From assembly GCF_056712565.1 (NCBI RefSeq), contig NZ_CM160072.1: DNA of 64,000 bases. The stretch is one strand, 5' to 3'. The notes beneath the pieces are model-generated. The model ran no database searches. It was not told the DNA's origin and was given only the letters and a program-made list of their open reading frames with translations. Made by a program: the position numbers and the translations under genes. Of the stretch, positions 7,892 through 25,404 are shown in pieces (the stretch's first letter is position 1; each line of letters starts with the position of its first letter).

Positions 7892-8317
7892 CTACTTAAT
7901 TGAGTCCAGTAACAAGTTACAGTTACTCTCATTGTAGAGAGAACGAGCAATTAGTGTTACCTGCTTTCCATTCATTCCCGGCTTATCCCATAACACAGCT
8001 TCTTGCGACGCCACAAATTCAGCATAATCAATTATGCGTTGTTCGTGATCTGGTTCCTCATAGCCAAAGTATGAGAGCGCATCGTTGTAAGCGTGGTAAG
8101 CTGCTTTCTGTAATATCTTGATATCGGCTGTAGGTACTTGCTCCGTGTAGCTAGGATCTAATTGTGTGCTACTGCCATAGAATGCACATGAAAGGTAAGA
8201 TATTGATTTCTGTTGAGCTTTAGTTCCTTTCTCATAGTTTTTAGCTGTTACCGCCTGAACAGGGACGCTAACAAAGCTTGCAACCAGAATTAAAATTAAT
8301 ACGTAAAAGCTTTTCAT
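7892..8317 (-). CDS. Secreted hypothetical protein (141 aa) with signal peptide; accessory cargo
   Basis: N-terminus MKSFYVLILILVASFVSVPVQA is signal-peptide-like; AT-rich; lies between dinI-like gene and cos. Confidence 0.6.
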   Translation of the reverse strand: MKSFYVLILILVASFVSVPVQAVTAKNYEKGTKAQQKSISYLSCAFYGSSTQLDPSYTEQVPTADIKILQKAAYHAYNDALSYFGYEEPDHEQRIIDYAEFVASQEAVLWDKPGMNGKQVTLIARSLYNESNCNLLLDSIK

Positions 8318-8590
8318 TTTGACCTCAGCCGAAACGTTAGAGAGACTATCGAAATTTGTAAAACCCGTGGCGATTCAGTTTGAGATCCTCCCCCTTACAT
8401 GATTTTTAATCAAATATATGCTTTTGTAAGCATACCTGTTAACCGAATTATTTATTTTTAGAGATCTTCCGACATACTGATTATGCCCGCTGAGGAGTTC
8501 ACCTTGCGTAAAGTCCGATTCGCTTTACTCGTCTGTGCATGTCTATGCTGCATGAGATTGCATGATCGTTTGAGGATCGTTTTTGCTAAG

Positions 8591-8615
8591 GCCCGCCAGA
8601 ACTGGCGGGCTTTTG
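8591..8615 (+). terminator. Rho-independent terminator-like hairpin
   Basis: GCCCGCCA-GAAC-TGGCGGGC followed by TTTTG. Confidence 0.5.
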
Positions 8616-8659
8616 CGTAGATCATGCTCCTGCATGAAAACCACTACATAAAGCGGGCA

Positions 8660-8678
8660 GGCGTGGCGGGGATACGAG
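8660..8678. other. Putative cos (cohesive-end) site of the prophage
   Basis: GGCGTGGCGGGGATACGAG resembles the 19-nt P2/186 cohesive-end sequences as I recall them (GGCGTGGCGGGGA...); lies upstream of portal Q as expected. Confidence 0.45.
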
Positions 8679-8692
8679 CGCGCGCTTGCACC

Positions 8693-8721
8693 TTGATATT
8701 CACGGTTTGGTTAAGTATTGT
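8693..8721 (+). promoter_or_regulatory. Putative sigma70 promoter of the protease operon
   Basis: TTGATA - 17 bp - TATTGT, about 40 bp upstream of ATG 8762. Confidence 0.35.
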
Positions 8722-8761
8722 CTTAGTCAGAGTCCATAACATATTACAGAATGGAGTTGTT

Positions 8762-9409
8762 ATGATTGGTCCTGAATATGTCGTAGTTGTTGGCGTGCTT
8801 AATGCAGGTTTGGTTAGTTTTTTAGGAACAGGTTTTTTTATTTCTAAGGATAAAATAATTACTTCCCGCCATGTTATTAATGGGTTTTCTTCTAACTTAG
8901 TTATTTCTCCATCTAATATAAATAACTTTAATAGTTATCAGGATACAAGTGTTGATAAATTTCAATGTATTGGAGTTGATGTTATTGATGAAGATCCAAT
9001 AAAAGACTTATGTGTGTTAAAAATTAAAAATGCACCTGTTTATGAACCTTGCCTAAAAATTGCTACTCTTGACGATGTTAATGTCGGTGAAGATGTGGGT
9101 ATTTTAGGTTTCCCACATTGTAATGAAAATAGAAAAGTATTGACATTTCAAACGGCAAAAATAGGTGCAAAAGTTTTACTTTCAAGCAGTAATATTCAAT
9201 CTAAACATGCCGTTATAAATATCCAAACCAGACCTGGTCAATCGGGATCGATTGTATTTAATTTAAAAAATGACTCGGTAATAGGCGTCTTGGTTGGCGC
9301 TTATGCAAATAATTCTGGAGGTTCTGTTTTGGTTGGAGGTATTAATCCAGCTGAACTACATCAGACAACTTATGCGGTTTCTGCAGAATATGTTAAGGAT
9401 ATGTTATGA
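8762..9409 (+). CDS. Trypsin-fold (S1/chymotrypsin-like) serine protease, 215 aa; accessory cargo
   Basis: Catalytic triad contexts in order His (ITSRHVING), Asp (DLCVLKI), Ser (RPGQSGSIVF); GGAG RBS; very AT-rich; track ORF 5' extension to 8624 would cross cos. Confidence 0.8.
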   Translation: MIGPEYVVVVGVLNAGLVSFLGTGFFISKDKIITSRHVINGFSSNLVISPSNINNFNSYQDTSVDKFQCIGVDVIDEDPIKDLCVLKIKNAPVYEPCLKIATLDDVNVGEDVGILGFPHCNENRKVLTFQTAKIGAKVLLSSSNIQSKHAVINIQTRPGQSGSIVFNLKNDSVIGVLVGAYANNSGGSVLVGGINPAELHQTTYAVSAEYVKDML

Positions 9410-9852
9410 TTGCTATACCAAATGAAGATGCTGAGTCTTGGTTGTCCACTTTAAAAACGTATCAATCTTCATCTGTCAGGAATTTTCTCGAAAATGGCGA
9501 TGAAGAAAAGGCTCTTGAGCTATGGCTAACTGCATCTGGCCCAAGTTCAGTTGCTCAATTTGGCGGTGATAATTCAAAAATGCCGGGAAGAAAAGCGTTT
9601 GTTGAGCAGTTTAAATTAGAGTTTAAGGCTTTTGTATGTGGAGGTGATAAATATGCAGAGGAGAGGGAATGTTTAGGAGCACTGACTGGTGATGTTAAAA
9701 CATACTTTGTAGGGGTGATCTCTTCGGCAATTGCGGGTTCTTTGGGGGCAACAGCAACATTTATTGCTCCAGCTGTAGTAATTATGTTGATAGCTGTCTC
9801 AAAAATGGGAATTAATGCTTGGTGTTCATTAGAGACAACGACAGAATCTTAG
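9406..9852 (+). CDS. Small protein (148 aa) with C-terminal hydrophobic membrane anchor; partner of the protease
   Basis: ATGA start/stop overlap with protease gene (translational coupling); C-terminal segment YFVGVISSAIAGSLGATATFIAPAVVIMLIAVS is hydrophobic. Confidence 0.7.
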   Translation: MIAIPNEDAESWLSTLKTYQSSSVRNFLENGDEEKALELWLTASGPSSVAQFGGDNSKMPGRKAFVEQFKLEFKAFVCGGDKYAEERECLGALTGDVKTYFVGVISSAIAGSLGATATFIAPAVVIMLIAVSKMGINAWCSLETTTES

Positions 9853-10906: not shown

Positions 10907-12630
10907 AAAATCTCCACAATATTACTGGTATTGGCGGACTCGCCCTGCAGTGGTTCGTTAAACAGTGCGTGCATTGTTGCCCAGGCCAGATCGGCGTGGC
11001 TGGCTTCTTCGCTGCGGCTGGCTTCATAGGTCGGGCGGTTGCCGCTGGCGGTGGTTGCGCGACGGATTGCCATGAATGACTGCGCAATGTCGGTGTGTCC
11101 GGCGTCAAACTCCAGACGGCGGTGGCTGATAATGTCGTAGGCCTTGAGTACCAGGGCGTTTTTAACGTTGGGGTTGTAGACAAACTCCCGGACGGCAGGA
11201 AAGAACGCTTTCACGTTCTCATAAACCCCGTGACCGACACCTGTCGAGTCGATGCCGATATATGTCACGTTGTACTGTTCGGTCAGTTTTTTGATGGCGT
11301 CCGCCTGGGCGCGGAAGTCCATCCCGCGCCACTGGTGACGCTCAAGAATACGGAACTTACCGCCCGGCACGGCTGGCGGAGCCACCACCACGCATCCGGC
11401 ACTGTCGCCGTTCTGCGTACCTTTTGCCGGGTCATAACCGATCCACACTTCGCGCCAGCCAAACGGGCGCAGCGCCAGTGCATGAAAGTCGGTCCAGACT
11501 TCCCAGCTGTCCACCATGCACGCCTGCAATTCGCTGAGCGGGAACACAGATGCGAGATCGTCAACGAACTCGCACATCAGCAGGTTCTGGTATTCGTCCG
11601 GGCTGTACTCCATGCGCAACTGGTCGAGGTCGAACAGGTTACAGCCGCCGCGTACCGCATCTTCCACGGTGACTATCTGGCGGTATTGCCCGTCTGCGCA
11701 CAGCAGGCCGGGGGCCAGATTGCTGTGGGACAGGTCGATGTCCACCTTATCGGCTTTGTTGCGCCCACGGTTGAACAACGCGCCGGACCAGAACGGATAA
11801 GCACTGTGGGTCAGGCTGGATGGCGTGGAAAAATAGGTCTGTCGCCATTTCTTGTGAATAGCCATACCGGAAGCCACTTTGCGCAGCTCCTGAAATTTTG
11901 GTATCCAGAAATATTCATCCAGATACAGGTTGCCGTGATAACTCTGGGCCGTGCGGGCATTGGTGCCTAGGAAGTAAAGCGTGGCCCCGTTAGGAAGCAC
12001 CATCGGATCGCCTTTCAGCTCCACCTCCACTTCTTTGGCGAAGTCGATGATGTACTGCTTAAAGACGTGGGCCTGTGCCTTACTGGCGGAAAGGAAAATC
12101 TGGTTACGCCCGGTAAGCAGAGCGTCAATCAGGGCTTCACGGGCAAAGTAAAAGGTTGCGCCGATCTGGCGTGACTTCAGCAGGTTGCGGATGCGGTTGT
12201 TTTTTCCGGCTTCCCACCAGTGGCGCTGGTAGTTGAACATGGAGGAATGGAAGATTTCTTCCAGCTTCTCAATCTGTTCATCGGTGAAAACGTTCTTTTC
12301 CGGCTGACGGCGCGGGCCTTTGTTGCGGTTGGCGACGTTAGGGTTTAAGTCGGCTTCGTTGCCGCCATTGTTAAACTTGCCGATCCGCGCATGGCGCTCC
12401 GACTGGCGCGCCAGCAGGTCAATCTCTTTGAAATCTTTCCCTTCTTTGTGCTCCTTCATAATGAGCTGGCAGTAGCGTGCGGCGGTGGTGAGCTGCATCT
12501 GATCCAGCGGCCCATAGTCACCCCACTTGTCGCGTTTTTTCCAGCTGTTCCAGTAAGTTTTTTCTAACGGAGCACGGCTCATGACAGTGAAAGCAAAGCG
12601 TTTTCGCATCGGGGTGGAAGGTGCCACCAC
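10903..12630 (-). CDS. P: Terminase large (ATPase) subunit gpP; true start probably downstream of 12630
   Basis: 575-aa ORF following Q; ATPase motifs; 5' end overlaps the divergent capsid ORF so start is uncertain. Confidence 0.85.
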   Translation of the reverse strand: MVAPSTPMRKRFAFTVMSRAPLEKTYWNSWKKRDKWGDYGPLDQMQLTTAARYCQLIMKEHKEGKDFKEIDLLARQSERHARIGKFNNGGNEADLNPNVANRNKGPRRQPEKNVFTDEQIEKLEEIFHSSMFNYQRHWWEAGKNNRIRNLLKSRQIGATFYFAREALIDALLTGRNQIFLSASKAQAHVFKQYIIDFAKEVEVELKGDPMVLPNGATLYFLGTNARTAQSYHGNLYLDEYFWIPKFQELRKVASGMAIHKKWRQTYFSTPSSLTHSAYPFWSGALFNRGRNKADKVDIDLSHSNLAPGLLCADGQYRQIVTVEDAVRGGCNLFDLDQLRMEYSPDEYQNLLMCEFVDDLASVFPLSELQACMVDSWEVWTDFHALALRPFGWREVWIGYDPAKGTQNGDSAGCVVVAPPAVPGGKFRILERHQWRGMDFRAQADAIKKLTEQYNVTYIGIDSTGVGHGVYENVKAFFPAVREFVYNPNVKNALVLKAYDIISHRRLEFDAGHTDIAQSFMAIRRATTASGNRPTYEASRSEEASHADLAWATMHALFNEPLQGESANTSNIVEIF

Positions 12631-13930
12631 CGACGGACGCGAAATCCAGCGTGAATGGCTGGAACAGATGGCAGCCAGCTACAACCCGGCGGTGTATACC
12701 GCGCTGATTAACCTTGAGCACATCAAGTCTTATATACCGGACAGCACCTTTAACCGCTACGGCAAGGTGACGGCGCTGTTTGCTGAAGAAATCACGGAAG
12801 GTCCGCTGGCAGGCAAGATGGCGCTGTATGCCGACGTTGAGCCAACGGAGTCCCTGGTGGAACTGGTGAAAAAAGGCCAGAAATTATTCACCTCTATGGA
12901 AGTCAGCCCGAAGTTCGCTGATACGGGCAAAGCCTACCTGGTCGGCCTGGCTGCCACTGATGACCCTGCCAGTCTGGGTACGGAAATGCTGACATTCAGC
13001 GCCAGTGCAGCCCATAACCCGCTGGCAAACCGCAAGCAGAATCCTGCCATGACTGAGCAGTCCGGTCAGCTGCTGGGGCTGGGTGTTGGCAGCACCATTG
13101 CCGGAACCACTGACACCACCGCAAAAGAGCGTGAACCTGTCGATCCGACGCTGATGGTCGATGTGGAATATAAATGCGAGCAGACCAACTTTGACACGGT
13201 GCTGACCTACGCGAAGCTGGACCTGTGGGCGAAGTTTCAGGATTTCCAGGTGCGTATCCGTGACGCCATCGTGAAACGTCAGGCACTGGACCGCATCATG
13301 ATCGGCTTTAACGGCGTGAAGCGTGCGAAAACCTCCAACCGTAGTGAAAACCCGCTGCTGCAGGATGTGAACAAAGGCTGGCTGCAGAAAATCCGTGAGG
13401 ATGCACCGGATCACGTCATGGGCAGCACCACCACGGGCGGCGAAACCACACCGGGTGCGGTGAAAGTCGGTAAAGGGGGCGAATATGCCAACTTGGACGC
13501 TGTGGTGATGGATGCGGTCAATGAGCTTATCGACGTGGTCTACCAGGACGATGACGATCTGGTGGTGATTTGCGGTCGTGAACTGCTGTCTGACAAGTAT
13601 TTCCCGCTGGTCAACAAAGAGCAGGAAAACAGTGAAAAATTGGCAGCCGATATGATTATCAGTCAGAAACGCATGGGCGGTCTGCAGGCCGTGCGTGCGC
13701 CGTTCTTCCCGCCGAATGCGCTGCTGATCACCCGTCTGGATAACCTGTCCATCTACTGGCAGGAAGACACCCGCCGCCGTTCAGTTATCGACAACCCGAA
13801 ACGTGACCGGATTGAAAACTTTGAATCCGTTAACGAAGCCTATGTGGTTGAGGACTACCGCTGCGCCGCACTGGTGGAAAACATCCAGATTGGTGATTTC
13901 AGCGCCGCCGCAGCCGAAACCGGAGCGTAA
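12581..13930 (+). CDS. Capsid protein with N-terminal gpO-like scaffold/protease region and C-terminal gpN-like major-capsid region in one 449-aa ORF
   Basis: N-terminus FRIGVEGATTDGR resembles P2 gpO start as I recall it; C-terminal half LITRLDNLSIYWQE...DNPKRDRIENFES...VVEDY resembles P2 gpN; single uninterrupted frame. Confidence 0.75.
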   Translation: MTVKAKRFRIGVEGATTDGREIQREWLEQMAASYNPAVYTALINLEHIKSYIPDSTFNRYGKVTALFAEEITEGPLAGKMALYADVEPTESLVELVKKGQKLFTSMEVSPKFADTGKAYLVGLAATDDPASLGTEMLTFSASAAHNPLANRKQNPAMTEQSGQLLGLGVGSTIAGTTDTTAKEREPVDPTLMVDVEYKCEQTNFDTVLTYAKLDLWAKFQDFQVRIRDAIVKRQALDRIMIGFNGVKRAKTSNRSENPLLQDVNKGWLQKIREDAPDHVMGSTTTGGETTPGAVKVGKGGEYANLDAVVMDAVNELIDVVYQDDDDLVVICGRELLSDKYFPLVNKEQENSEKLAADMIISQKRMGGLQAVRAPFFPPNALLITRLDNLSIYWQEDTRRRSVIDNPKRDRIENFESVNEAYVVEDYRCAALVENIQIGDFSAAAAETGA

Positions 13931-14679: not shown

Positions 14680-15144
14680 ATGAAGTTTGTTGCGCCAGAA
14701 CAGGCACCGGAACAGGCGGAAATCATCAGGAATACGCCGTTCTGGCCTGATGTGGACTTGTCGGAGTTTCGCAGTGTCATGCGCACTGACGGCACGGTGA
14801 CGCAGCCGCGTTTAAAGCAGGTTGCGCTGTCGGCAATTTCGGAGGTCAACGCAGAGCTGTATGAGTTTCGCAGACGCCAGCAGATGCTGGGATATGCCTC
14901 GCTGGCAGAGGTTCCGGCAGAACATCTGGACGGGAAAAGTGAGCGCATTCAGCACTATTTCAACGCGGTTTACTGCTGGGCCCGCGCCATGCTCAACGAA
15001 CGATACCAGGACTATGACGCCACGGCGTCTGGTGTGAAGCGAGGCGAGGAACTGGCGGAAGCCAGCGGTGATTTATGGCGTGACGCCCGCTGGGCCATCA
15101 GCCGGGTACAGGACGCGCCGCACTGCACAGTGGAGCTTATCTGA
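14680..15144 (+). CDS. L: Head completion protein gpL
   Basis: ATG 14680 with AGGAGA RBS; P2 synteny. Confidence 0.75.
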   Translation: MKFVAPEQAPEQAEIIRNTPFWPDVDLSEFRSVMRTDGTVTQPRLKQVALSAISEVNAELYEFRRRQQMLGYASLAEVPAEHLDGKSERIQHYFNAVYCWARAMLNERYQDYDATASGVKRGEELAEASGDLWRDARWAISRVQDAPHCTVELI

Positions 15145-15347
15145 TGAAAGTGCGTGCGCATCAGTATGACACGGTGGACGCGCTTTGCTGGCGTCATTAC
15201 GGGCGCACGCAGGGTGTCACGGAGCAGGTACTGAAGGCAAATCCGGGGCTTGCCGAATACGGCCCCTTTTTACCTCACGGGCTGCAGGTGGAGCTGCCGG
15301 ACATTCCGACTACCACCACCGTGCAGACCGTCCAGCTATGGGACTGA
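15144..15347 (+). CDS. X: Tail protein gpX (67 aa)
   Basis: Size and position as P2 X; TGATG overlap with L. Confidence 0.8.
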   Translation: MKVRAHQYDTVDALCWRHYGRTQGVTEQVLKANPGLAEYGPFLPHGLQVELPDIPTTTTVQTVQLWD

Positions 15348-15350
15348 ATT

Positions 15351-15566
15351 ATGACGCTTGAGCGAATCAGCGCCTTTATCACGTACTGCATCGCCGTTGT
15401 GCTGGCCTGGCTGGGCGATTTGTCCATCAAGGATGCCTCAACGCTGGGCGGCCTGATGATTGGTGTGCTGATGCTGGCTATCAACTGGTACTACAAACAC
15501 AAAGCCTACCAGCTTCTGCGCGACGGGCAGATCTCGCGGGAGGACTATGAATCCATCAATCGTTAA
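15351..15566 (+). CDS. Holin (71 aa, two TM segments; pinholin-like)
   Basis: Two hydrophobic stretches then charged C-terminus; directly upstream of lysozyme. Confidence 0.7.
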   Translation: MTLERISAFITYCIAVVLAWLGDLSIKDASTLGGLMIGVLMLAINWYYKHKAYQLLRDGQISREDYESINR

Positions 15567-16059
15567 ACGCTGCCTTGTCGGGGCCGTGCTGGCTATTGCT
15601 GCCACGCTGCCGGGTTTTCAGCAGCTTCACACCTCCGTAGAGGGGCTGAAACTGATTGCCGATTACGAAGGCTGTCGTCTGCAGCCGTATCAGTGCAGCG
15701 CGGGCGTCTGGACCGACGGCATTGGTAATACGTCGGGCGTCATTCCCGGCAAAACCATTACGGAGCGACAGGCAGCAAAAGGGCTGATCTCCAACGTGCT
15801 GCGTGTGGAGCGGGCGCTGGAAAGGTGTGTGAAGCAACAGCCGCCGCAGAAGGTATATGACGCTACGGTGTCGTTTGCCTTCAACGTGGGAACGGACAAT
15901 GCCTGCAGTTCAACACTGGTGAAATTACTCAATCAGCGGCGCTGGGCGGATGCGTGCCGACAGTTGCCGCGCTGGGTTTATGTGAAAGGTGTGTTTAATC
16001 AGGGGCTGGATAACCGCCGTGCGCGGGAGATGGCCTGGTGTTTACAGGGAGCAAACTGA
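15547..16059 (+). CDS. K: Endolysin (phage lysozyme) with N-terminal SAR-like hydrophobic segment
   Basis: N-terminus KRCLVGAVLAIAATLPG (Gly/Ala-rich hydrophobic) followed by lysozyme-like region EGLKLIADYEGCRLQPYQCSAGVWTDGIGNT. Confidence 0.8.
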   Translation: MNPSIVKRCLVGAVLAIAATLPGFQQLHTSVEGLKLIADYEGCRLQPYQCSAGVWTDGIGNTSGVIPGKTITERQAAKGLISNVLRVERALERCVKQQPPQKVYDATVSFAFNVGTDNACSSTLVKLLNQRRWADACRQLPRWVYVKGVFNQGLDNRRAREMAWCLQGAN

Positions 16060-16060
16060 A

Positions 16061-16438
16061 ATGAAAAAGAAATTAATCAGCGGGCTGTTTCTGATGTTAT
16101 GGATGGCGTTGTTAATCGCAGCAATGGTGTATCCGCAGGGGATTTTTCCGGTACTGGCAGCGTCCGGCGTTTGGGTAGCCTGTTTGCTGACATGGGCGGT
16201 AATTCCGGTAGCACTGGCTGCGTTAATTAAGAATGGACCGCTCTGGCAGGAGTTAAGGGCATCTTTGCTGAAGACAATTACCCGAAAAGAAAACGTATTT
16301 ACCAGTTGGGTGATGCGATTGCTGATTGTTGTAAGTCTCGCCTGGACGGGGTGGGCTATTACCCTGGTGTTTTATCTACTGACCGTTATTGCCTTCTGGA
16401 TCACCCGTAATCAGATGGCGCAACAGGTAGCAGCATGA
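16061..16438 (+). CDS. lysA: LysA-like membrane protein
   Basis: ATG 16061; multiple TM helices; P2 position. Confidence 0.6.
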   Translation: MKKKLISGLFLMLWMALLIAAMVYPQGIFPVLAASGVWVACLLTWAVIPVALAALIKNGPLWQELRASLLKTITRKENVFTSWVMRLLIVVSLAWTGWAITLVFYLLTVIAFWITRNQMAQQVAA

Positions 16439-16863
16439 ACCGGTTGCTGCTGGTTGTGCTGGCGTTATTACTGGCGGCGCTGGGCTGGCAGACGTGGCGG
16501 CTGGCTGATGCCAGCCAGACCATTAGCACGCAGGCAGACGAGCTGCAGAGCAAAAGCCAGGCACTGGCAAAGAGCAACAGCCAGCTTATCAGCCTGTCCA
16601 TTCTGGCTGAAACCAACAACCGGGAGCAGGCGCGGCTCTATGCCGACGCAGAACAGACCAGCGCACTGCTGAGACAACGACAACACCGGATTGAGGAACT
16701 GAAACGTGAGAACGAGGATTTACGCCGCTGGGCTGATACTCCTTTGCCTGCTGACATTATCCGGCTGCGGGAACGCCCCACGCTCACCGGAGGTGCAGCT
16801 TACCGTCAGTGGTTGTCCGCGAGTGACGCCGTGTCGGCTGGATCAGGCAGCGCCGCGCATTAA
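16435..16863 (+). CDS. lysB: LysB (Rz-like spanin, inner-membrane component)
   Basis: N-terminal TM, coiled-coil-like middle; embedded out-of-frame lipoprotein ORF. Confidence 0.65.
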   Translation: MNRLLLVVLALLLAALGWQTWRLADASQTISTQADELQSKSQALAKSNSQLISLSILAETNNREQARLYADAEQTSALLRQRQHRIEELKRENEDLRRWADTPLPADIIRLRERPTLTGGAAYRQWLSASDAVSAGSGSAAH

Positions 16864-16996
16864 CGGTGATCTGAACGCGTTGTTGGATGAAACGGAGGCC
16901 GCCTGGGCGGTCTGTGCAGACAAAGTGGACATGATTATTGCGTGTCAGGAGCGAAACAGTGAACAAACCACAATCCCTGCGCCACGCCCTCAATAA
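16706..16996 (+). CDS. lysC: LysC (Rz1-like outer-membrane lipoprotein spanin)
   Basis: Lipobox LSGC after signal peptide; overlaps lysB in another frame. Confidence 0.5.
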   Translation: MRTRIYAAGLILLCLLTLSGCGNAPRSPEVQLTVSGCPRVTPCRLDQAAPRINGDLNALLDETEAAWAVCADKVDMIIACQERNSEQTTIPAPRPQ

Positions 16997-17390
16997 GGCG
17001 GTGCCTTATGTCCGCAATAACCCGGACAAACTGCATCTGTTTGTGGATAACGGTTCGCTGGTTGCCACGGGGGCCAGCTCCATGTCATGGGAGTACCGCT
17101 ACACCCTGAACGTGGTGATTGAGGATTTCAGCGGCGACCAGAATCTGCTGATGGCCCCGGTTTTGCTGTGGCTGCGGGATAACCAGCCCGATGCCATCAA
17201 TAATCCGGCGTTACGGGAAAAGTTATTCACCTTTGAGGTGGATATTCTGCGCAACGATGTCTGTGATATCAGCCTTAACCTGCAACTGACGGAGCGTGTG
17301 CTGGTCAGCACTGACGGCAGTGTGTCGAGCGTTGAAGCTATAGCGGAACCTGATGAACCTGAAGAAATGTGGACGGTGAAACGTGGCTGA
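16938..17390 (+). CDS. R: Tail completion protein gpR (start uncertain, TTG 16938 or GTG 16959)
   Basis: KPQSLRHALNKAV resembles P2 gpR N-terminus; synteny. Confidence 0.7.
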   Translation: MRVRSETVNKPQSLRHALNKAVPYVRNNPDKLHLFVDNGSLVATGASSMSWEYRYTLNVVIEDFSGDQNLLMAPVLLWLRDNQPDAINNPALREKLFTFEVDILRNDVCDISLNLQLTERVLVSTDGSVSSVEAIAEPDEPEEMWTVKRG

Positions 17391-17965: not shown

Positions 17966-19924
17966 ATGATAGTAGGGATTTTTTTAAGGTATTTTAAAAC
18001 ATACAACGGAAATCATTACATACCGTTATCTTCTGGAAGTCAGTTTTGTGGAATTGTTGGTAACAATGGAATTGGCAAAAGTTCTGTTCTTGAGGCTTTA
18101 GATTCGTTTATTAATAACAAACCATGGAATATTAATTCTTCATTTAAAAGAACCTCCAGTGACAGACCTTCTCCACATATTGTTCCTTTATATCTTATAA
18201 AGCGAGAGGAATTACATGAAGATCATCATGCTAAAGCTGAAATCTTAACGCAATTAGTATTAGAATATAGCAATAGTAATGCTGATGTTACATTGACGCC
18301 AACAACACGAAATATAATTAATACGTTTTTTGAACATATTAACAAATTAAAAAGAAATTTAAATCTCCAAGATTATTTTTTGATCCCTCTGGGTGTCGAG
18401 AAAGATGGTGATGTAAGTATTTCGATTCTTAATGGGAAGAGTTTATGTCGACTTTTGGAGGTTGATAATCCCGATAATAAAGTTTCGAGCGAGTTGCTTA
18501 GTAAGCACTTTGGGTATTTATTACATCATGTCCGCCATAAGTATGAATATATATATATTCCAAAGGATATAGACTCTGAATCGTTTACGAAGCTAGAAAC
18601 AAGTGAAGTACAAAAGTTGATGGGTGAGTCTTTAGAGCAGATAATTAAAGATAGAATATCTGATAGAACCATAAGTCAAATCAATACAGGGCTTGCCAAA
18701 TTTCTGGATGGTGTTGAAGAGGAGCTTGAAGAATATGGTTATAGAACATCTGGCGAGAGACAATCGCGATTAAAAAAGAAAGATGTTTATAATTTGATTA
18801 TCGAAGCATTCTTCAAAGTTAGGAAATTAAATAAAAAGCAGAATTCAGGTTGGATTGAAATTAGCTCGCTAAGTTCAGGGGAGAAGCAACGTGCAATAAT
18901 GGATATTGCATATGGGTTTCTTACCAATCATAGAGAAAATGGCGATAATCTGATTATTGGAATTGATGAGCCAGAATGTTCTCTTCATATGTCTGCATGT
19001 TTTGAACAATTTGAAAAGCTCTATTCTATTAGTGGTATATGTGAACAATTAATATTTACTTCACATTGGTATGGCTATCTTCCAACCGTCGAAAATGGAT
19101 GTACCACAACTATCCTTAAAACAGATTCAACTCATCATTTTGAATTATATGATCTTGCCAGTTATAGAGAAGAAGTCAGGAAGAAAGTAAAAACCTCTTC
19201 CCCGGGTATGCCATTTGATATAAAAATAAAAAGTGTAAATGACCTTATACAATCCATAATATCTAGCTGTTTGGCTGAGAAACCTTACAATTGGTTGATT
19301 TGTGAGGGTACTACAGAAAAAATATATCTTTCGCATTATCTAAAGGACTTGGTAGAAAATAAAAGGCTAAGGATTGTGCCTGTAGGGGGAGCTAGTGAAG
19401 TTAAAAAAATATTTAAGCATTTAGAAGCTTCTTATGAAGAGTTCAAAAAAGACCTCAAAGGAAAAGTGTTCTTACTAACCGATACAGATTCAGAGTTGGT
19501 GTCATATGATACCCCAGTTATGCCGCATGTTGTTTGTAAGCGAATTGTTAGTGTAGGTGATTCAGTGAAGTTGGTTGATATTTCTTCCAATCCAGTTTCT
19601 CCTGCAACAGAAATAGAGGATTGTCTTAATCCTGTATCGTTTATAGAGGCTTTAACATCATTTTCTTCACGTTTTCCTGAGCTTCAGGCATTGCTGCCTA
19701 ATAGTAATGTTATGATAGATGAAAGACATTCATCGTTTGCTGCGATGGATTTGTCACCCAAGAACAAAAAAACGCTTGATGCTTTTTTTGACCGTGAAGG
19801 AATTAAGTTTGATTTTTCAAAGGAATATATTTCAATCTGTGAGCGAAATGAGCGGAAAAGGCCAGAGTGGATTGCCAAAATTGAAAATTTTTTTATAAGT
19901 GATAAACCTGTAAAGTTTAATTGA
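17966..19924 (+). CDS. OLD-family ATP-dependent nuclease (ABC ATPase + TOPRIM), 652 aa; accessory defence-type cargo
   Basis: Walker A GNNGIGKSS, ABC signature LSSGEKQ, Walker B LIIGIDEPE, H-loop FTSHW; C-terminal TOPRIM-like WLICEGTTE and LLTDTDSE; same motif layout as host YbjD in this window; AT-rich. Confidence 0.85.
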   Translation: MIVGIFLRYFKTYNGNHYIPLSSGSQFCGIVGNNGIGKSSVLEALDSFINNKPWNINSSFKRTSSDRPSPHIVPLYLIKREELHEDHHAKAEILTQLVLEYSNSNADVTLTPTTRNIINTFFEHINKLKRNLNLQDYFLIPLGVEKDGDVSISILNGKSLCRLLEVDNPDNKVSSELLSKHFGYLLHHVRHKYEYIYIPKDIDSESFTKLETSEVQKLMGESLEQIIKDRISDRTISQINTGLAKFLDGVEEELEEYGYRTSGERQSRLKKKDVYNLIIEAFFKVRKLNKKQNSGWIEISSLSSGEKQRAIMDIAYGFLTNHRENGDNLIIGIDEPECSLHMSACFEQFEKLYSISGICEQLIFTSHWYGYLPTVENGCTTTILKTDSTHHFELYDLASYREEVRKKVKTSSPGMPFDIKIKSVNDLIQSIISSCLAEKPYNWLICEGTTEKIYLSHYLKDLVENKRLRIVPVGGASEVKKIFKHLEASYEEFKKDLKGKVFLLTDTDSELVSYDTPVMPHVVCKRIVSVGDSVKLVDISSNPVSPATEIEDCLNPVSFIEALTSFSSRFPELQALLPNSNVMIDERHSSFAAMDLSPKNKKTLDAFFDREGIKFDFSKEYISICERNERKRPEWIAKIENFFISDKPVKFN

Positions 19925-19958: not shown

Positions 19959-20006
19959 CTAACCTCTAACCTCTAACCTCTAACCTCTAACCTCTAACCT
20001 CTAACC
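19959..20006. repeat. Heptanucleotide tandem repeat (CTAACCT) x ~6.9
   Basis: Six perfect CTAACCT units plus CTAACC read directly from the sequence; intergenic between cargo gene and V promoter. Confidence 0.95.
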
Positions 20007-22527: not shown

Positions 22528-23930
22528 GCACAAAATTTTATACCCTGCTGACGGATATTGGCGCGGCGAAACTCGCCAGCGCCGCCGCGCTCGGTGTGCC
22601 TTTAAAAATTACCCATATGGCGGTCGGCGATGGCGGCGGAACATTGCCAACGCCGGACGCCAAGCAGACAGCATTGGTAAATGAGAAACGCCGGGCTGCG
22701 CTGAATATGCTCTATATCGACCCGCAGAACAGCAGCCAGATTATTGCTGAACAGGTGATCCCTGAAAATGAGGGTGGTTGGTGGATACGTGAAGTGGGCC
22801 TGTTTGATGAGTCCGGGGTATTGATTGCCGTGGGAAACTGCCCGGAAAGCTATAAGCCGCAACTGGCTGAAGGCAGCGGGCGTACCCAGACCGTGCGCAT
22901 GGTGCTGATTACCAGCAGTACGGACAATATCACCCTGAAAATCGACCCTGCTGTAGTACTGGCAACTCGCAAGTATGTGGATGATAAGGCACTGGAGCTG
23001 AAGGTGTATGTGGATGACCAAATGGCAAAACACCTTGCCGCAGCGGACCCACATTCACAGTATGCGCCAAAAGCCAGCCCGATATTTACCGGAACCCCCA
23101 AAGCGCCGACGCCAGCGGCGGGGAATAATACCACGCAACTTGCGACCACCGCGTTTGTTCAGGCGGCACTGACGGCCCTTATTAATGGTGCGCCAGCCAC
23201 GCTGGACACGCTAAAAGAAATAGCCGCAGCCATTAACAATGATCCGAAATTCAGTACCACCATTAACAATGCGCTGGCACTGAAAGCGCCGCTGTCGAGT
23301 CCGGCACTCACCGGAACGCCAACAGCCCCTACTGCCGCACAGTCGGTTAACAATACACAGATTGCCACTACGGCTTTTGTGAAATCGGCGATTGCAGCAA
23401 TGGTGGGGTCTGCACCTGCGGCACTGGATACATTGAACGAACTGGCGGCGGCGCTGGGGAATGACCCGAACTTTGCCACGACAATGCTTAATGCGCTAGC
23501 AGGTAAACAACCGCTGGACAATACGCTGACTAATTTGAGTGGAAAGGATGTTGCTGGTCTTCTCGCATACCTTGGTTTAGGAGAAGCGGCGAAAAGGGAT
23601 GTGGGCACAGGAGATAATCAGATACCGGATATGTCTTTCTGGTCTTCCGCATCGGGTGGCGTTAATTTCCCTAATGGATTCCAGATGCGATTCGGTGCTA
23701 TCGCTGGTAATGGTGGAAAATTATTTTCTACGCCATTTACAAATCAGTGCTATGGCATTGTTTTCGGACAAACATATGGAGCCAACTACTGGATGTTCAG
23801 CCCGATGTACAGAGCATCTGATCTGAGTAATACCAGTTTTGCATTCATTAACAAAGCCTGGTCTGGAATTCCGGGGACAGGTGCTCAGGACGCTGGTGAA
23901 TCAGTTTTTTATATTGCAGTAGGGTATTAA
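22524..23930 (+). CDS. H: Tail fibre protein gpH (constant N-terminal part joined to currently expressed variable C-terminal part)
   Basis: 468 aa with Ala/Thr-rich repeats (TTAFVQAALTAL, TTAFVKSAIAAM); crossover site inside the gene. Confidence 0.85.
   Translation: MSTKFYTLLTDIGAAKLASAAALGVPLKITHMAVGDGGGTLPTPDAKQTALVNEKRRAALNMLYIDPQNSSQIIAEQVIPENEGGWWIREVGLFDESGVLIAVGNCPESYKPQLAEGSGRTQTVRMVLITSSTDNITLKIDPAVVLATRKYVDDKALELKVYVDDQMAKHLAAADPHSQYAPKASPIFTGTPKAPTPAAGNNTTQLATTAFVQAALTALINGAPATLDTLKEIAAAINNDPKFSTTINNALALKAPLSSPALTGTPTAPTAAQSVNNTQIATTAFVKSAIAAMVGSAPAALDTLNELAAALGNDPNFATTMLNALAGKQPLDNTLTNLSGKDVAGLLAYLGLGEAAKRDVGTGDNQIPDMSFWSSASGGVNFPNGFQMRFGAIAGNGGKLFSTPFTNQCYGIVFGQTYGANYWMFSPMYRASDLSNTSFAFINKAWSGIPGTGAQDAGESVFYIAVGY
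23560..23585. other. Inversion crossover site (gix/hix-like), left
   Basis: TTCTCGCATACCTTGGTTTAGGAGAA fits the Din-invertase site pattern TTnTCnnAAACCnnGGTTTnnGAnAA (one mismatch); inverted copy at 25351. Confidence 0.6.
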
Positions 23931-23931
23931 T

Positions 23932-24375
23932 ATGGAAATGGTTTATAGCGCCTCAAATAATAGTTTTTTCGCTAAAAATGATGTGGCGAAATATGAACAG
24001 GCCGGATGGGAACTTGCTGATATTGTCGAAGTGACATATGACACTTACCTGGAATTTATTGAAGACAGAACGTTGCAAGGGAAAGTACGCATCGCGGGTG
24101 ATGATGGCCTTCCCACCTGGGGGGAAATTCCACCGCCAACTCATGAGGAACAAATTGCCGCAGCCGAACTGGAAAAGCAGCAATTGATTAATCAGGTCAA
24201 CGAATACATATACAGTAAGCAATGGCCTGGTAAAGCAGCGATTGGTCGCCTGAAAGGTGAGGAACTGGCGCAATATAATTTGTGGCTGGATTATCTGGAC
24301 GCACTGGAACTGGTTGATACCTCCAGTGCTCCAGATATTGAATGGCCTACGCCTCCGGCAGTTCAGGCCAGATGA
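23932..24375 (+). CDS. Tail fibre assembly protein (orientation-1 copy)
   Basis: 147 aa ending ...DIEWPTPPAVQAR, like Tfa chaperones; follows H. Confidence 0.75.
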   Translation: MEMVYSASNNSFFAKNDVAKYEQAGWELADIVEVTYDTYLEFIEDRTLQGKVRIAGDDGLPTWGEIPPPTHEEQIAAAELEKQQLINQVNEYIYSKQWPGKAAIGRLKGEELAQYNLWLDYLDALELVDTSSAPDIEWPTPPAVQAR

Positions 24376-24949
24376 CGTCCGGCGCTGTGCTGGTATCTGT
24401 TGCCGTCACCGCATCAATGTAATCCAGCACAGCGTTAAGTCGGGTGTTTTCTGTCTGCGTCAGCTTCCGCCCGGCCTGCAATTTCAGTTGAATCAGACTA
24501 ATGGAAGCCATTGCAGTATCAATCAGTGACTGACGCTGTGCTTCTGCCGCGTCTAGTGTGGCGCTATGCTGTGCCTCAGTATCTGTCACCCATTTCTCAC
24601 CATCCCATTCATCGTATGGCGTTAACGGGGCGATAGTGGTTGTATTTTCAGGGTAATCACCTGGTGCTGTGATTTCTTTTGATTCTCCTGTTTCGGTGCT
24701 AAAAACGATTTCACCGCGATGGTCTGGCACATATTCCCATGAGTTAAAATCTGCAGAACGGCAGATTGCATAACCAGCTTTACATGTAACTGGTGAATCT
24801 AAACAGGAATATGCAGGGATACCGACACCAATGGCAAGATATTCATTTGAAGTAGAAATATATTCCCGAGTTTTACCATCATAGTTATAGACGGTAATAT
24901 TCCCCGCCTTCGTGGCAATAATCTCGCTATTTAATACGGCGTTATCCAT
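24347..24949 (-). CDS. Tail fibre assembly protein (alternative, orientation-2 copy)
   Basis: 200 aa; C-terminus ...APDVIWPELPEA mirrors the other Tfa; opposite strand inside invertible segment. Confidence 0.7.
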   Translation of the reverse strand: MDNAVLNSEIIATKAGNITVYNYDGKTREYISTSNEYLAIGVGIPAYSCLDSPVTCKAGYAICRSADFNSWEYVPDHRGEIVFSTETGESKEITAPGDYPENTTTIAPLTPYDEWDGEKWVTDTEAQHSATLDAAEAQRQSLIDTAMASISLIQLKLQAGRKLTQTENTRLNAVLDYIDAVTATDTSTAPDVIWPELPEA

Positions 24950-25404
24950 TATGCAGCCCTTACGATATAGTTAAATGCAATATTTCGTGGACGGGTTTCG
25001 CTTCCGCCATATGATGATGTAAATCCCGAATATGCCCGGTGTCCCGCATCCGTCGTATTAGCCCAGGAAGGACCGCTAGAAGTATAGATGACCCCATTGT
25101 AATCATGGCCGTGTGCCTCAATGCTCCCGTCCTGAGCAGACAGGAGAGTCCGTCCTGAATCAATTCCTCTTCCATCATCCCACCCACGAATGAATTCGCC
25201 GCGTAAATCTGGCAATTTATTTGTCGGATAAACTTTTGCCAGTTCCGGATACTCTTCGGCAGAAAAAGCTGCACCGTTGCATTTCAGCCAGCCTGTTGGC
25301 GGTGTGACTGAAGGCCACGGAACAGGCACACCTACGGGTAATGCAGAGCCTTCTCCTAAACCAACGTTTAAGAAAATGCAGCGATTACGACTAACTGGCA
25401 TCAT
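24949..25404 (-). CDS. Alternative tail-fibre C-terminal variable segment (expressed after inversion)
   Basis: 151-aa minus-strand ORF; shares GLGE junction with H at the crossover site. Confidence 0.7.
   Translation of the reverse strand: MMPVSRNRCIFLNVGLGEGSALPVGVPVPWPSVTPPTGWLKCNGAAFSAEEYPELAKVYPTNKLPDLRGEFIRGWDDGRGIDSGRTLLSAQDGSIEAHGHDYNGVIYTSSGPSWANTTDAGHRAYSGFTSSYGGSETRPRNIAFNYIVRAA
25351..25376. other. Inversion crossover site (gix/hix-like), right
   Basis: TTCTCCTAAACCAACGTTTAAGAAAA; inverted repeat of the site at 23560; adjacent to invertase gene. Confidence 0.6.

Follow-up and report, generated by a model that had tools for sequence, protein, structure and literature searches.

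Lysis cassette of an Escherichia coli P2-like prophage with a predicted P1-type SAR endolysin and an S21/HP1-type holin

Closest described lysis systems

The SAR (signal-arrest-release) endolysins include cysteine classes such as those of P1 and Lyz103. A SAR domain is made up of a short N-terminus with two to three basic residues and a weakly hydrophobic transmembrane domain (TMD) rich in small residues, and the definitive test is whether the protein is exported by Sec uncleaved, stays tethered to the membrane and is set free by a pinholin or when the membrane is depolarised (PMC9239132). Pinholins form nanometre-scale holes and do not support lysis with a soluble endolysin; P1 LydA and LydC are canonical holins with two TMDs, and holin and pinholin sequences are described as 'much alike' (PMC9025707). 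In P1, the SAR endolysin Lyz has an adjacent pinholin, LydD. In phage 21, the gene for the prototype pinholin S21 (71 aa, two TMDs, N-in/C-in, dual start at Met1/Met4) precedes the gene for the SAR lysozyme R21, which has an E-x8-D-x5-T triad and is without a SAR cysteine. The lysis genes of P2 (Y, K, lysA, lysB, lysC) follow gene X in the O operon, and K resembles lambda R (PMC6139136). Spanin gene pairs are termed either overlapped or embedded/nested (PMC6139136). The HP1-family holin of Shewanella LambdaSo, S(So), was shown genetically to be needed for lysis and depolarisation, and works with a SAR endolysin, R(So). The endolysin of Klebsiella phage KP12 has already been called P1-Lyz-like with a conserved SAR domain, in silico; for the adjacent holin a low-confidence heptamer model was given, and another holin was favoured (PMC9902359).

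Gene content and setting of the cassette

The window, which is the whole stretch of 64,000 nt analysed from contig NZ_CM160072.1 (RefSeq assembly GCF_056712565.1), contains the lysis module of an E. coli P2-like prophage (Peduoviridae, Fels-2/Felsduovirus-type), in the late O operon and 3' of tail gene X. The module combines a predicted SAR endolysin and an S21/HP1-type holin, which would most likely form small TMD2-lined holes, with a P2-type LysA and a LysB/LysC pair. Its features are as follows.

15338..15361, plus strand: vestigial upstream holin start, ATGGGACTGAAT...TGA, from a comparison of start contexts with relatives
15351..15566, plus strand: predicted class II holin, 71 aa, WP_000171568.1 ('HP1 family phage holin'), single start codon
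15547..16059, plus strand: predicted SAR-type GH24 endolysin, 170 aa, WP_001069917.1
16061..16438, plus strand: LysA-like protein, 125 aa; phrog_162, E 1.2e-43; NF038378, 122 bits
16435..16863, plus strand: LysB i-spanin, 142 aa; TIGR03495, 174.5 bits (cut-off 92.75); phrog_89, E 9e-46
16706..16996, plus strand: LysC o-spanin, 96 aa, GTG start; NF038368, 123.6 bits; PF23793, E 2.3e-13

The holin and lysozyme genes lie where an earlier note on this DNA had placed them (15351-15566 and 15547-16059), and LysA, LysB and LysC follow 3' of the endolysin, as it had also said. The first two genes overlap by 20 nt, and the lysozyme start is found behind a GGGAGG Shine-Dalgarno sequence. Open reading frames on the minus strand across the region were without support and were taken as chance. 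The LysA-like protein has four hydrophobic segments by hydrophobicity scan and falls into the same PHROG as P2 LysA (phrog_162, at 1.8e-67 for P2 LysA), with a weak BLASTP match between the two (E 0.002); it is the counterpart of P2 LysA and a possible lysis-timing factor or antiholin. In LysB, residues 4-20 form an N-terminal TMD, and a helical domain lies in the periplasm. LysC carries the lipobox LSG-C21 and resembles P2 LysC in length and N-terminus; its CTG start in the PGAP annotation (16748) was set aside for the GTG at 16706. The lysC gene runs in another frame for 158 nt inside lysB and continues for 133 nt past the lysB stop (16863 vs 16996). Because it starts inside lysB but ends beyond it, the spanin pair is of the overlapped type, as in P2, and not nested as the earlier note had called it.

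The likeness to P2 extends to the placement behind gene X in the O operon, to LysA (phrog_162), to LysB (TIGR03495), and to a LysC of 96 aa in overlapped arrangement. The first two genes differ: P2 Y is a 93-aa holin with three TMDs (phrog_175), and P2 K gave no match with PF00959-type lysozymes in this analysis and lacks a hydrophobic N-terminus. Since Y and K are unlike the pair described here while lysA, lysB and lysC match, the holin-endolysin pair has been swapped as a module. The cassette is already annotated and known. Roughly 1,000 complete E. coli genomes have annotated (RefSeq/PGAP) proteins identical to its products, and the cassette was found in 1,037 of 5,426 such genomes, or about one in five, as well as in P2-like phages of Salmonella, Klebsiella and Yersinia. 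The KP12 cassette, with 97.1% identical DNA and a 100% identical holin, is the one whose endolysin was called P1-like SAR in print.

The prophage in the window was also observed to lack the late P/O promoter region, which has been lost, and to carry a scaffold-capsid fusion. Compared with the otherwise near-identical MS15052 prophage, 231 bp are absent at window position 12548|12549. With them went 40 codons at the start of the terminase ATPase gene as well as most of the P-O intergenic region (110 of its 142 nt), the TGT-N12-ACA dyad among it. Another 554 bp are absent at about 13046-13049, where gpO and gpN are fused in a 449-aa open reading frame (12581-13930). As the best 14 listed complete E. 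coli genomes keep this DNA, the deletions could be private to the strain or an assembly or sequence artefact.

The endolysin and its N-terminal domain

The lysozyme matches PF00959 (E 1.4e-39) and phrog_7 (E 8.6e-67) in profile searches. A hydrophobicity scan places K7 and R8 in front of a hydrophobic segment from C9 to F24 (nt 15571-15618), in which 7 of the 16 residues are Gly, Ala or Thr (4 Ala, 2 Gly and 1 Thr; 8 of 16 with Pro). The single N-terminal hydrophobic segment was foreseen in the earlier note, which had described it as Gly/Ala-rich; it is rich in Ala more than in Gly. The two basic residues and the weakly hydrophobic TMD match the published SAR pattern (PMC9239132). Hydrophobicity sums on the Hessa 2005 scale are -0.17 for the known SAR domain of P1 and 0.15 for that of R21, which does not separate them from ordinary TMDs; the sums are blind to proven SAR domain versus stable TMD, and were therefore not used to reject SAR behaviour of either the endolysin or the holin. 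A shorter endolysin starting at GTG 15586 (157 aa, as in ON470620) was ruled out, because the upstream peptide SIVKRC is kept, with synonymous DNA changes, in relatives whose endolysins are 61-63% identical.

The top solved relative in the PDB is P1 Lyz (1XJT, E 2.8e-26 by phmmer; query residues 13-168 against chain residues 11-181), with an alignment that extends into the SAR helix. R21 (3HDE) and RrrD (4ZPU) match as well, and every one of these top PDB relatives is a SAR endolysin. An AlphaFold model (pLDDT 84) retrieved full-length 1XJT first with Foldseek (TM 0.82 over 174 columns), with 4ZPU and 3HDE next in rank, and in this model residues 11-20 form a helix packed on the body of the enzyme, like full-length 1XJT. 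The catalytic region, E41-G-C43...C50...T56, is encoded at nt 15667-15714. Residues C9, E41, C43 and C50 align with C13, E42, C44 and C51 of P1 Lyz, and are kept in relatives from Yersinia and Erwinia (about 61-63% identity) and from HP2 (33%); the three cysteines are also conserved in the Klebsiella relative, with C43G in one homologue (P0204). R21 has V and D at these positions. The E-x8-D-x5-T triad without a SAR cysteine was not matched by the endolysin, in which E+9 is C50 and C9 is present. Its assignment as a SAR endolysin is strongly supported by these comparisons of predicted features. By cysteine pattern it is of the P1 disulfide-switch type and not of the phage 21 type, since R21 has Asp at E+9 and no SAR cysteine; the SAR logic of phage 21 and P1, to which the earlier note had appealed, thus survives in its P1 half.

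With P1 Lyz the enzyme shares the GH24 fold, the SAR-like N-terminal helix, the E-G-C-x6-C motif, the Cys at E+9 and a Cys in the N-terminal domain. Identity, however, reaches no more than about 36-38%; the hydrophobic domain has 16 residues as opposed to about 19 in P1, with C9 at the cytoplasmic edge and not in mid-helix; and the 11-residue insertion after the NVG motif, present in P1 and HP2, is missing. LydD, adjacent to Lyz in P1, is unrelated to the holin of the cassette. HP2 lys has EGC...C and a Cys-containing N-terminal hydrophobic stretch.

That the N-terminus is a cleavable Sec signal peptide, leaving a soluble periplasmic enzyme, is very unlikely. It stays conceivable from sequence because the hydrophobic core runs without interruption for just 13 residues (C9-L21) and contains A16-I17-A18, a possible AxA site; moreover T4 RI, long mis-called SAR, is reportedly cleaved (PMC8385771). 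Yet cleavage would remove C9, which is kept together with C43 and C50 down to 33% identity, and the packing of residues 11-20 on the body in the AlphaFold model, as in 1XJT, also speaks against it, as does the holin next door, which a free active lysozyme would make pointless. The same A-I-A lies within the SAR domain of P1 Lyz, and P1 Lyz was reportedly found not to be cleaved (Xu et al. 2004/2005).

The holin and the proposed course of lysis

The holin scores 36.7 bits with PF16080 (HP1 holin; cut-off 28.8) and matches phrog_20 (E 1.9e-26), the PHROG of S21 (E 1.1e-32). It stays below the cut-off of PF04971 (P21 holin S; 23.2 vs 26 bits), and BLASTP gave no alignment with S21, so the homology of the two is one of profiles only. 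The profile search connects it to S21-like and HP1-like proteins; the homologue search with the holin retrieved only close enterobacterial relatives (56-100% identity), and the PDB search gave chance matches only, to photosystem helices. HP1 and HP2 share PF16080 with it, but are distant in sequence (phrog_20 E 1e-9 for HP2 hol) and have different phage backgrounds. LambdaSo resembles the cassette in pairing an HP1-family holin with a SAR endolysin, and differs in also needing Lcc6 and in having multiple holin starts.

The hydrophobicity scan found exactly two segments, TMD1 at I6-G22 (nt 15366-15416) and a second one at A29-N45, for which TMD2 is taken as about A29-Y48 (nt 15435-15494), in agreement with the two-TM, 71-aa holin of the earlier note. 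The loop DLSIKD has a net charge of -1, and in the charged tail (residues 49-71) 5 basic residues stand against 4 acidic ones. With two TMDs, a predicted N-in/C-in topology, a charged C-terminal tail and a place beside the endolysin gene, the holin is by prediction class II. Both it and S21 are 71 aa long with two TMDs, N-in/C-in, in the same gene order of holin then SAR lysozyme. They share the motifs (D/E)(K/R)IS..(I/L)(A/T)Y and xN(W/L)Y(Y/F)K, and S30, G34, G38 and N45 align with G40, S44, G48 and N55 of S21 when counted back from the common Asn. The four residues are 92-99% conserved among 83 unique sequences (S30, G34 and G38: 98-99%), giving TMD2 a small-residue (glycine-zipper) face at the positions of S21; G40, S44 and G48 of S21 are said to have a role in the zipper (Pang et al. 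2009).

TMD1 differs from that of S21 in being 6 residues shorter and far more hydrophobic. Its Hessa sum is -0.56, with 6 of 17 residues Gly, Ala, Ser or Thr (S21 TMD1: 6.2 and 11/17). Of 98 superfamily representatives (median 3.9 and 9/17), 98% have a less hydrophobic TMD1, which puts it at the 2nd percentile. It is therefore not evident that TMD1 would leave the membrane, the central step in how S21 works. The known SAR domains of P1 and R21 lie at about 0 on this scale. Two close relatives (P0262, P0268) have the same TMD2 and tail with a SAR-like TMD1. A dual-start antiholin was sought in the start context and is absent, there being a single Met in place of the Met1/Met4 pair of phage 21. 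When start contexts were compared between the window, Yersinia phage 06.16-2, Erwinia EtG and Klebsiella RCIP0057, the upstream ATG (15338) was out of frame in the window, with a stop after 7 codons, while the relatives begin here with the dual-start-like MGLKM or MGLTM.

In the relatives for which the N-terminus of the partner was read (phage 21, HP2, Yersinia 06.16-2, Erwinia EtG, Klebsiella RCIP0057), the holin adjoins a lysozyme with an N-terminal hydrophobic domain. The 80 related IMG/VR loci found by holin alignment all have 100% identical holins and are thus useless for distant holin-endolysin pairing. Among three distant holin representatives, one has the holin followed by a PF00959 lysozyme, one is a 701-bp contig, and in the third (L089) the holin shares its cassette with two other membrane proteins and with a 159-aa protein that looks soluble.

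The earlier name pinholin is plausible for a predicted two-TMD homologue of S21 with the same PHROG and common motifs. It stays an inference because two-helix holins can be canonical, so that counting two against three TMDs does not tell the kinds apart, because TMD1 is unusually hydrophobic for the superfamily, and because there is no dual start. There is a real but minor chance that the SAR endolysin is paired instead with a canonical class II holin making large non-specific holes, as in the LydA-Lyz pair of P1 or that of N4; the SAR enzyme would then be released simply by the loss of proton motive force that any holin brings about. The two-TMD canonical holins LydA and LydC and the similarity of the two kinds in sequence (PMC9025707) agree with this, as do the rank of TMD1, the missing dual start and the pairing of a SAR endolysin with a holin in N4. 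Homology to the prototype pinholin with the TMD2 zipper positions kept points the other way, as do the relatives examined, which adjoin SAR-type lysozymes with none clearly soluble, and the HP1-family member that acts as a depolariser with a SAR endolysin. Compatible with either reading, and about evenly balanced in likelihood, is that the cassette is a silent remnant in the source genome, its genes intact but without expression in a productive cycle. The loss of the P/O late promoter region and the scaffold-capsid fusion (the 231-bp and 554-bp losses) speak for it, with the P2 lysis genes annotated as part of the O operon. Against it, intact prophages have 100% identical lysis frames, and the best 14 listed complete E. 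coli genomes span both junctions with the missing DNA present.

In the preferred and probable reading, that of a SAR endolysin with an S21/HP1-type holin, the lysozyme would be exported by Sec and stay anchored in the inner membrane through residues about 9-24, initially dead with the active-site C50 locked in a C43-C50 disulfide. The 71-aa holin would accumulate N-in/C-in and depolarise the membrane at a programmed time, most likely through small TMD2-lined holes. The SAR helix would then leave the bilayer and the C9 thiol would attack the C43-C50 bond, giving C9-C43 and a free C50, upon which the freed lysozyme would refold and degrade murein. LysB and LysC would disrupt the outer membrane last, and LysA would modulate the timing. 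It is further conceivable, if rather improbable, that in an enterobacterial subfamily of S21/HP1 holins the SAR-like TMD1 was replaced by a strongly hydrophobic one and the dual-start antiholin was lost; such holins may trigger without TMD1 exit, with the four-TMD LysA as a timing or antiholin partner. If true, a P1-type disulfide-switch endolysin would here be served by a holin that works in a variant way. With its unusually hydrophobic TMD1, the holin is a cheap test case for TMD1 exit across S21-type holins.

The main use of the analysis is correct annotation. A P1-type, disulfide-controlled SAR enzyme, as predicted here, bears on endolysin engineering, and in expression of the endolysin the N-terminal 24 residues and C9 deserve attention. 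For the P2-like phages as a family, the cassette shows an exchange of the holin-endolysin pair as a unit around a retained lysA, lysB and lysC.

The lysis cassette within its prophage

Ten complete E. coli chromosomes, among them SF-468, MS15052 and several APEC O1:K1:H7 strains, carry the DNA at 15100-17100 with 100% identity, and it is matched in 1,037 of 5,426 complete genomes. P2-like phages and prophages from E. coli and Klebsiella share 96.8-97.5% identity with it, against 80-90% for Salmonella Fels-2-type phages. The RefSeq annotation of MS15052, an E. coli strain with a near-identical prophage used here as reference, shows rcdA and ybjL flanking a P2-like prophage whose late genes stand in the usual order: terminase, GPO scaffold, capsid, terminase endonuclease subunit, head completion and tail protein X, then 'HP1 family phage holin', 'lysozyme', 'DNZ54_00345 family protein', lysB and lysC, and, 3' of lysC, tail genes R and S. 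The holin and lysozyme reading frames are as described in the earlier note, and the profile matches of the cassette genes are far above chance:

15351-15566 (+), holin, 71 aa (WP_000171568.1): PF16080, 36.7 bits (cut-off 28.8); phrog_20, E 1.9e-26
15547-16059 (+), lysozyme, 170 aa (WP_001069917.1): PF00959, E 1.4e-39; phrog_7, E 8.6e-67
16061-16438, LysA-like protein: NF038378 and phrog_162
16435-16863, LysB: TIGR03495, 174.5 bits
16706-16996, LysC: NF038368, 123.6 bits

The lysozyme frame starts 20 nt inside the holin gene and is preceded by a GGGAGG Shine-Dalgarno sequence. The reading of these genes as a lysis cassette is right in outline and already known: identical proteins carry PGAP names, and the endolysin of a related Klebsiella phage record is labeled SAR endolysin. 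The cassette of Klebsiella phage KP12 is 97.1% identical to that of the window, with a 100% identical holin. The 2023 paper on KP12 described, in silico, an endolysin resembling P1 Lyz with a conserved SAR domain; a pinholin was sought, and modeling the adjacent holin as a heptamer gave low confidence (PMC9902359).

The spanin genes were said to be nested. Instead, lysC begins within lysB and ends 133 nt beyond it, which is the 'overlapped' architecture of P2 (terms from PMC6139136). From GTG 16706, LysC has 96 aa, agrees with P2 LysC in length and N-terminus, and carries a well-formed lipoprotein signal (LSG-C21). The CTG start of PGAP/RefSeq (16748) was rejected, as it leaves only seven residues, ending in LLTLSG, before the lipobox cysteine. 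LysA (same PHROG), LysB and LysC are common to P2 and the window. However, P2 holin Y has 93 aa and three TMDs and belongs to phrog_175, and P2 endolysin K, likened to lambda R (PMC6139136), lacks the hydrophobic N-terminus of the window lysozyme. The holin-endolysin pair has thus been exchanged as a module in an otherwise P2-type cassette. It combines an S21/HP1-like holin with a P1-like endolysin; the adjacent pinholin of P1, LydD, is unrelated to the window holin.

The endolysin

The lysozyme is very likely a SAR endolysin. The solved relatives that rank best are all SAR endolysins: full-length P1 Lyz (1XJT) matches at E 2.8e-26 in an alignment that starts at residue 13, within the hydrophobic N-terminus, and phage 21 R21 (3HDE) and DLP12 RrrD (4ZPU) match likewise. 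The AlphaFold model (pLDDT 84, pTM 0.82), helical at residues 11-20, aligns first with 1XJT (TM 0.82, 174 columns) and next with 4ZPU and 3HDE, all of them full-length structures in which the SAR helix packs against the body. The N-terminus, MNPSIVKR-CLVGAVLAIAATLPGF, contains two basic residues and then a 16-residue stretch (4 Ala, 2 Gly, 1 Thr), in agreement with how SAR domains are described in the literature (PMC9239132). Its first eight residues are conserved as protein in the Yersinia, Erwinia and Klebsiella relatives while the DNA changes are synonymous, which favors ATG 15547 over GTG 15586; the latter start, used in one phage record, was rejected on this ground.

The cysteine pattern is more telling than N-terminal composition. 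C9, E41, C43 and C50 align with C13, E42, C44 and C51 of P1 Lyz, and the same pattern is seen in relatives with 61-63% identity, from Yersinia, Erwinia and Klebsiella phages, and in HP2 at 33%. In contrast, the two catalytic-region positions are Val and Asp in R21, whose SAR domain has no Cys. P1 Lyz is reportedly kept inactive by a C44-C51 disulfide and is said to become active once the SAR helix is released and its C13 attacks that bond. From the match to this triad, the window endolysin looks like a member of the P1 subclass. The SAR logic claimed in the earlier note is therefore strongly supported by homology, but on the model of P1 and not of phage 21. P0204, an 86%-identical endolysin from Dryocola sp., reads EGG for EGC (C43G) and retains C9 and C50; if real, this change would make the proposed C43-C50 and C9-C43 disulfides impossible in that variant.

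The endolysin is intact (170/171 aa) in 71 of 75 IMG/VR loci with an identical holin. Public assemblies also contain 296-aa endolysin::LysA fusions, which join the endolysin 3' end to the lysA start (15989-16061). They arise from two different 1-nt deletions, one in the GGG run of CGGGAG and one in TGG; each shifts reading to the lysA frame, which stays open upstream of the lysA start. A holin::endolysin fusion protein likewise exists in public data. The fusion alleles (related proteins P0130, P0137 and P0121) look like inactivating mutations in resident prophages.

The holin

With high confidence, the 71-aa protein is a holin. As had been proposed, it has two TM segments: a hydrophobicity scan finds only I6-G22 and A29-N45, and these, with an acidic loop and charged tail, predict an N-in/C-in class II topology. 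Judged from profiles and alignment, it is homologous, at superfamily level, to the phage 21 pinholin. E-values to phrog_20 are 1.1e-32 for S21 (100% identical to phage 21 record OL657228), 1.9e-26 for the window holin, 5.6e-22 for a Yersinia relative and 1e-9 for HP2 hol. The alignment pairs DKISTGIAY (S21) with ERISAFITY at the N-terminus and LTNLYFK with AINWYYK at the end of TMD2. Relative to the shared Asn, S30, G34 and G38 coincide with S21 G40, S44 and G48, and in 83 unique family sequences their conservation is 98-99%. Among 1.84 billion representatives, a profile search picked out 206 relatives, including S21-like and HP1-like proteins, and NWYY(K/R) closes TMD2 in nearly all of them.

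On balance we lean towards a small-hole pinholin. S21 homology and the two TMDs agree with that part of the earlier reading, but PF04971 scores 23.2 bits, under its cut-off of 26, BLASTP of the window holin against S21 gives no alignment, and the window holin has no dual start. The relatives begin MGL(K/T/S)M-E-K-I, recalling the Met1/Met4 pair of S21; their start ATG (15338) is out of frame in the window and meets a stop after seven codons. Two TMDs do not define a pinholin, since P1 LydA and LydC are canonical holins with two; operationally, a pinholin is one that cannot support a soluble endolysin (PMC9025707). TMD1 is also unusual: its Hessa sum is -0.56 and 6/17 of its residues are small, against a median of 3.9 and 9/17 in 98 representatives, only 2% of which are as hydrophobic, and 6.2 and 11/17 in S21. 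This crude scale puts the proven SAR domains of both P1 Lyz and R21 at about 0, so the score gives no verdict on whether TMD1 stays in the membrane. P0262 and P0268, two related holins, have almost exactly the TMD2 end and C-terminal tail of the window holin (…NWYYKHKAYQLLRDGQITREDYESINR) and, in place of its hydrophobic first helix, a SAR-like one rich in Gly, Ala and Ser; TMD1 thus appears exchangeable within the subfamily. In Shewanella, the HP1-family holin of LambdaSo was found by genetics to act with a SAR endolysin and to depolarize the membrane.

Proposed lysis pathway and state of the prophage

Beyond the gene content, we infer the following course. Late transcription of the O operon would yield five lysis proteins. 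The lysozyme would be exported with residues 9-24 as tether and held inactive through topology and probably also by a C43-C50 disulfide. The holin would build up and trigger, collapsing the proton motive force; the SAR helix would then exit the bilayer, C9 reshuffle the disulfide, and the enzyme refold and cut murein. LysB/LysC would disrupt the outer membrane, and LysA may adjust the timing of lysis.

The prophage carries several further differences and putative cargo. A minus-strand 141-aa ORF and a plus-strand pair, annotated in MS15052 as 'S1 family peptidase' and hypothetical protein, lie at 7892-9852, with the replication genes on one side and the portal gene on the other (the P2 tin/old position), which looks like another cargo spot. 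A low-GC 652-aa ATPase (17966-19924, +; PGAP 'AAA family ATPase') occupies the position of P2 non-essential orf30, between tail genes S and V; its PADLOC matches to AriA (E 9.9e-22) and Old (E 2.4e-11) make it a likely OLD-family anti-phage cargo gene. Just 3' of it, a 7-nt intergenic insertion, CTAACCT (19959-19965), distinguishes the window from MS15052. Downstream of the insertion and upstream of gene V lies a TGT-N12-ACA dyad (20035), presumably the P_V activator site. Relative to MS15052, the tail-fibre and fibre-assembly segment (23569-25364) is inverted; it adjoins a 'recombinase family protein' gene, which suggests an invertible host-range segment that is in its alternative orientation here.

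Two stretches of MS15052 are absent from the otherwise near-identical prophage. At 12548|12549, 231 bp are missing, comprising the first 40 terminase ATPase codons and, of the 142-nt P-O intergenic region, 110 nt that contain a TGT-N12-ACA dyad, which we take to be the Ogr-dependent late-promoter element of P2. At about 13046-13049, a 554-bp loss joins the GPO scaffold gene in frame to the major capsid gene (449-aa ORF, 12581-13930). The absent DNA is present at both junctions in 14 of the 14 top-ranked complete E. coli genomes, and the missing stretches are possibly a sequence artefact. From the two losses, the prophage looks head-defective and its late operon promoterless; if the deletions are real, the lysis cassette would be carried in an operon without a promoter, within a head-defective prophage.
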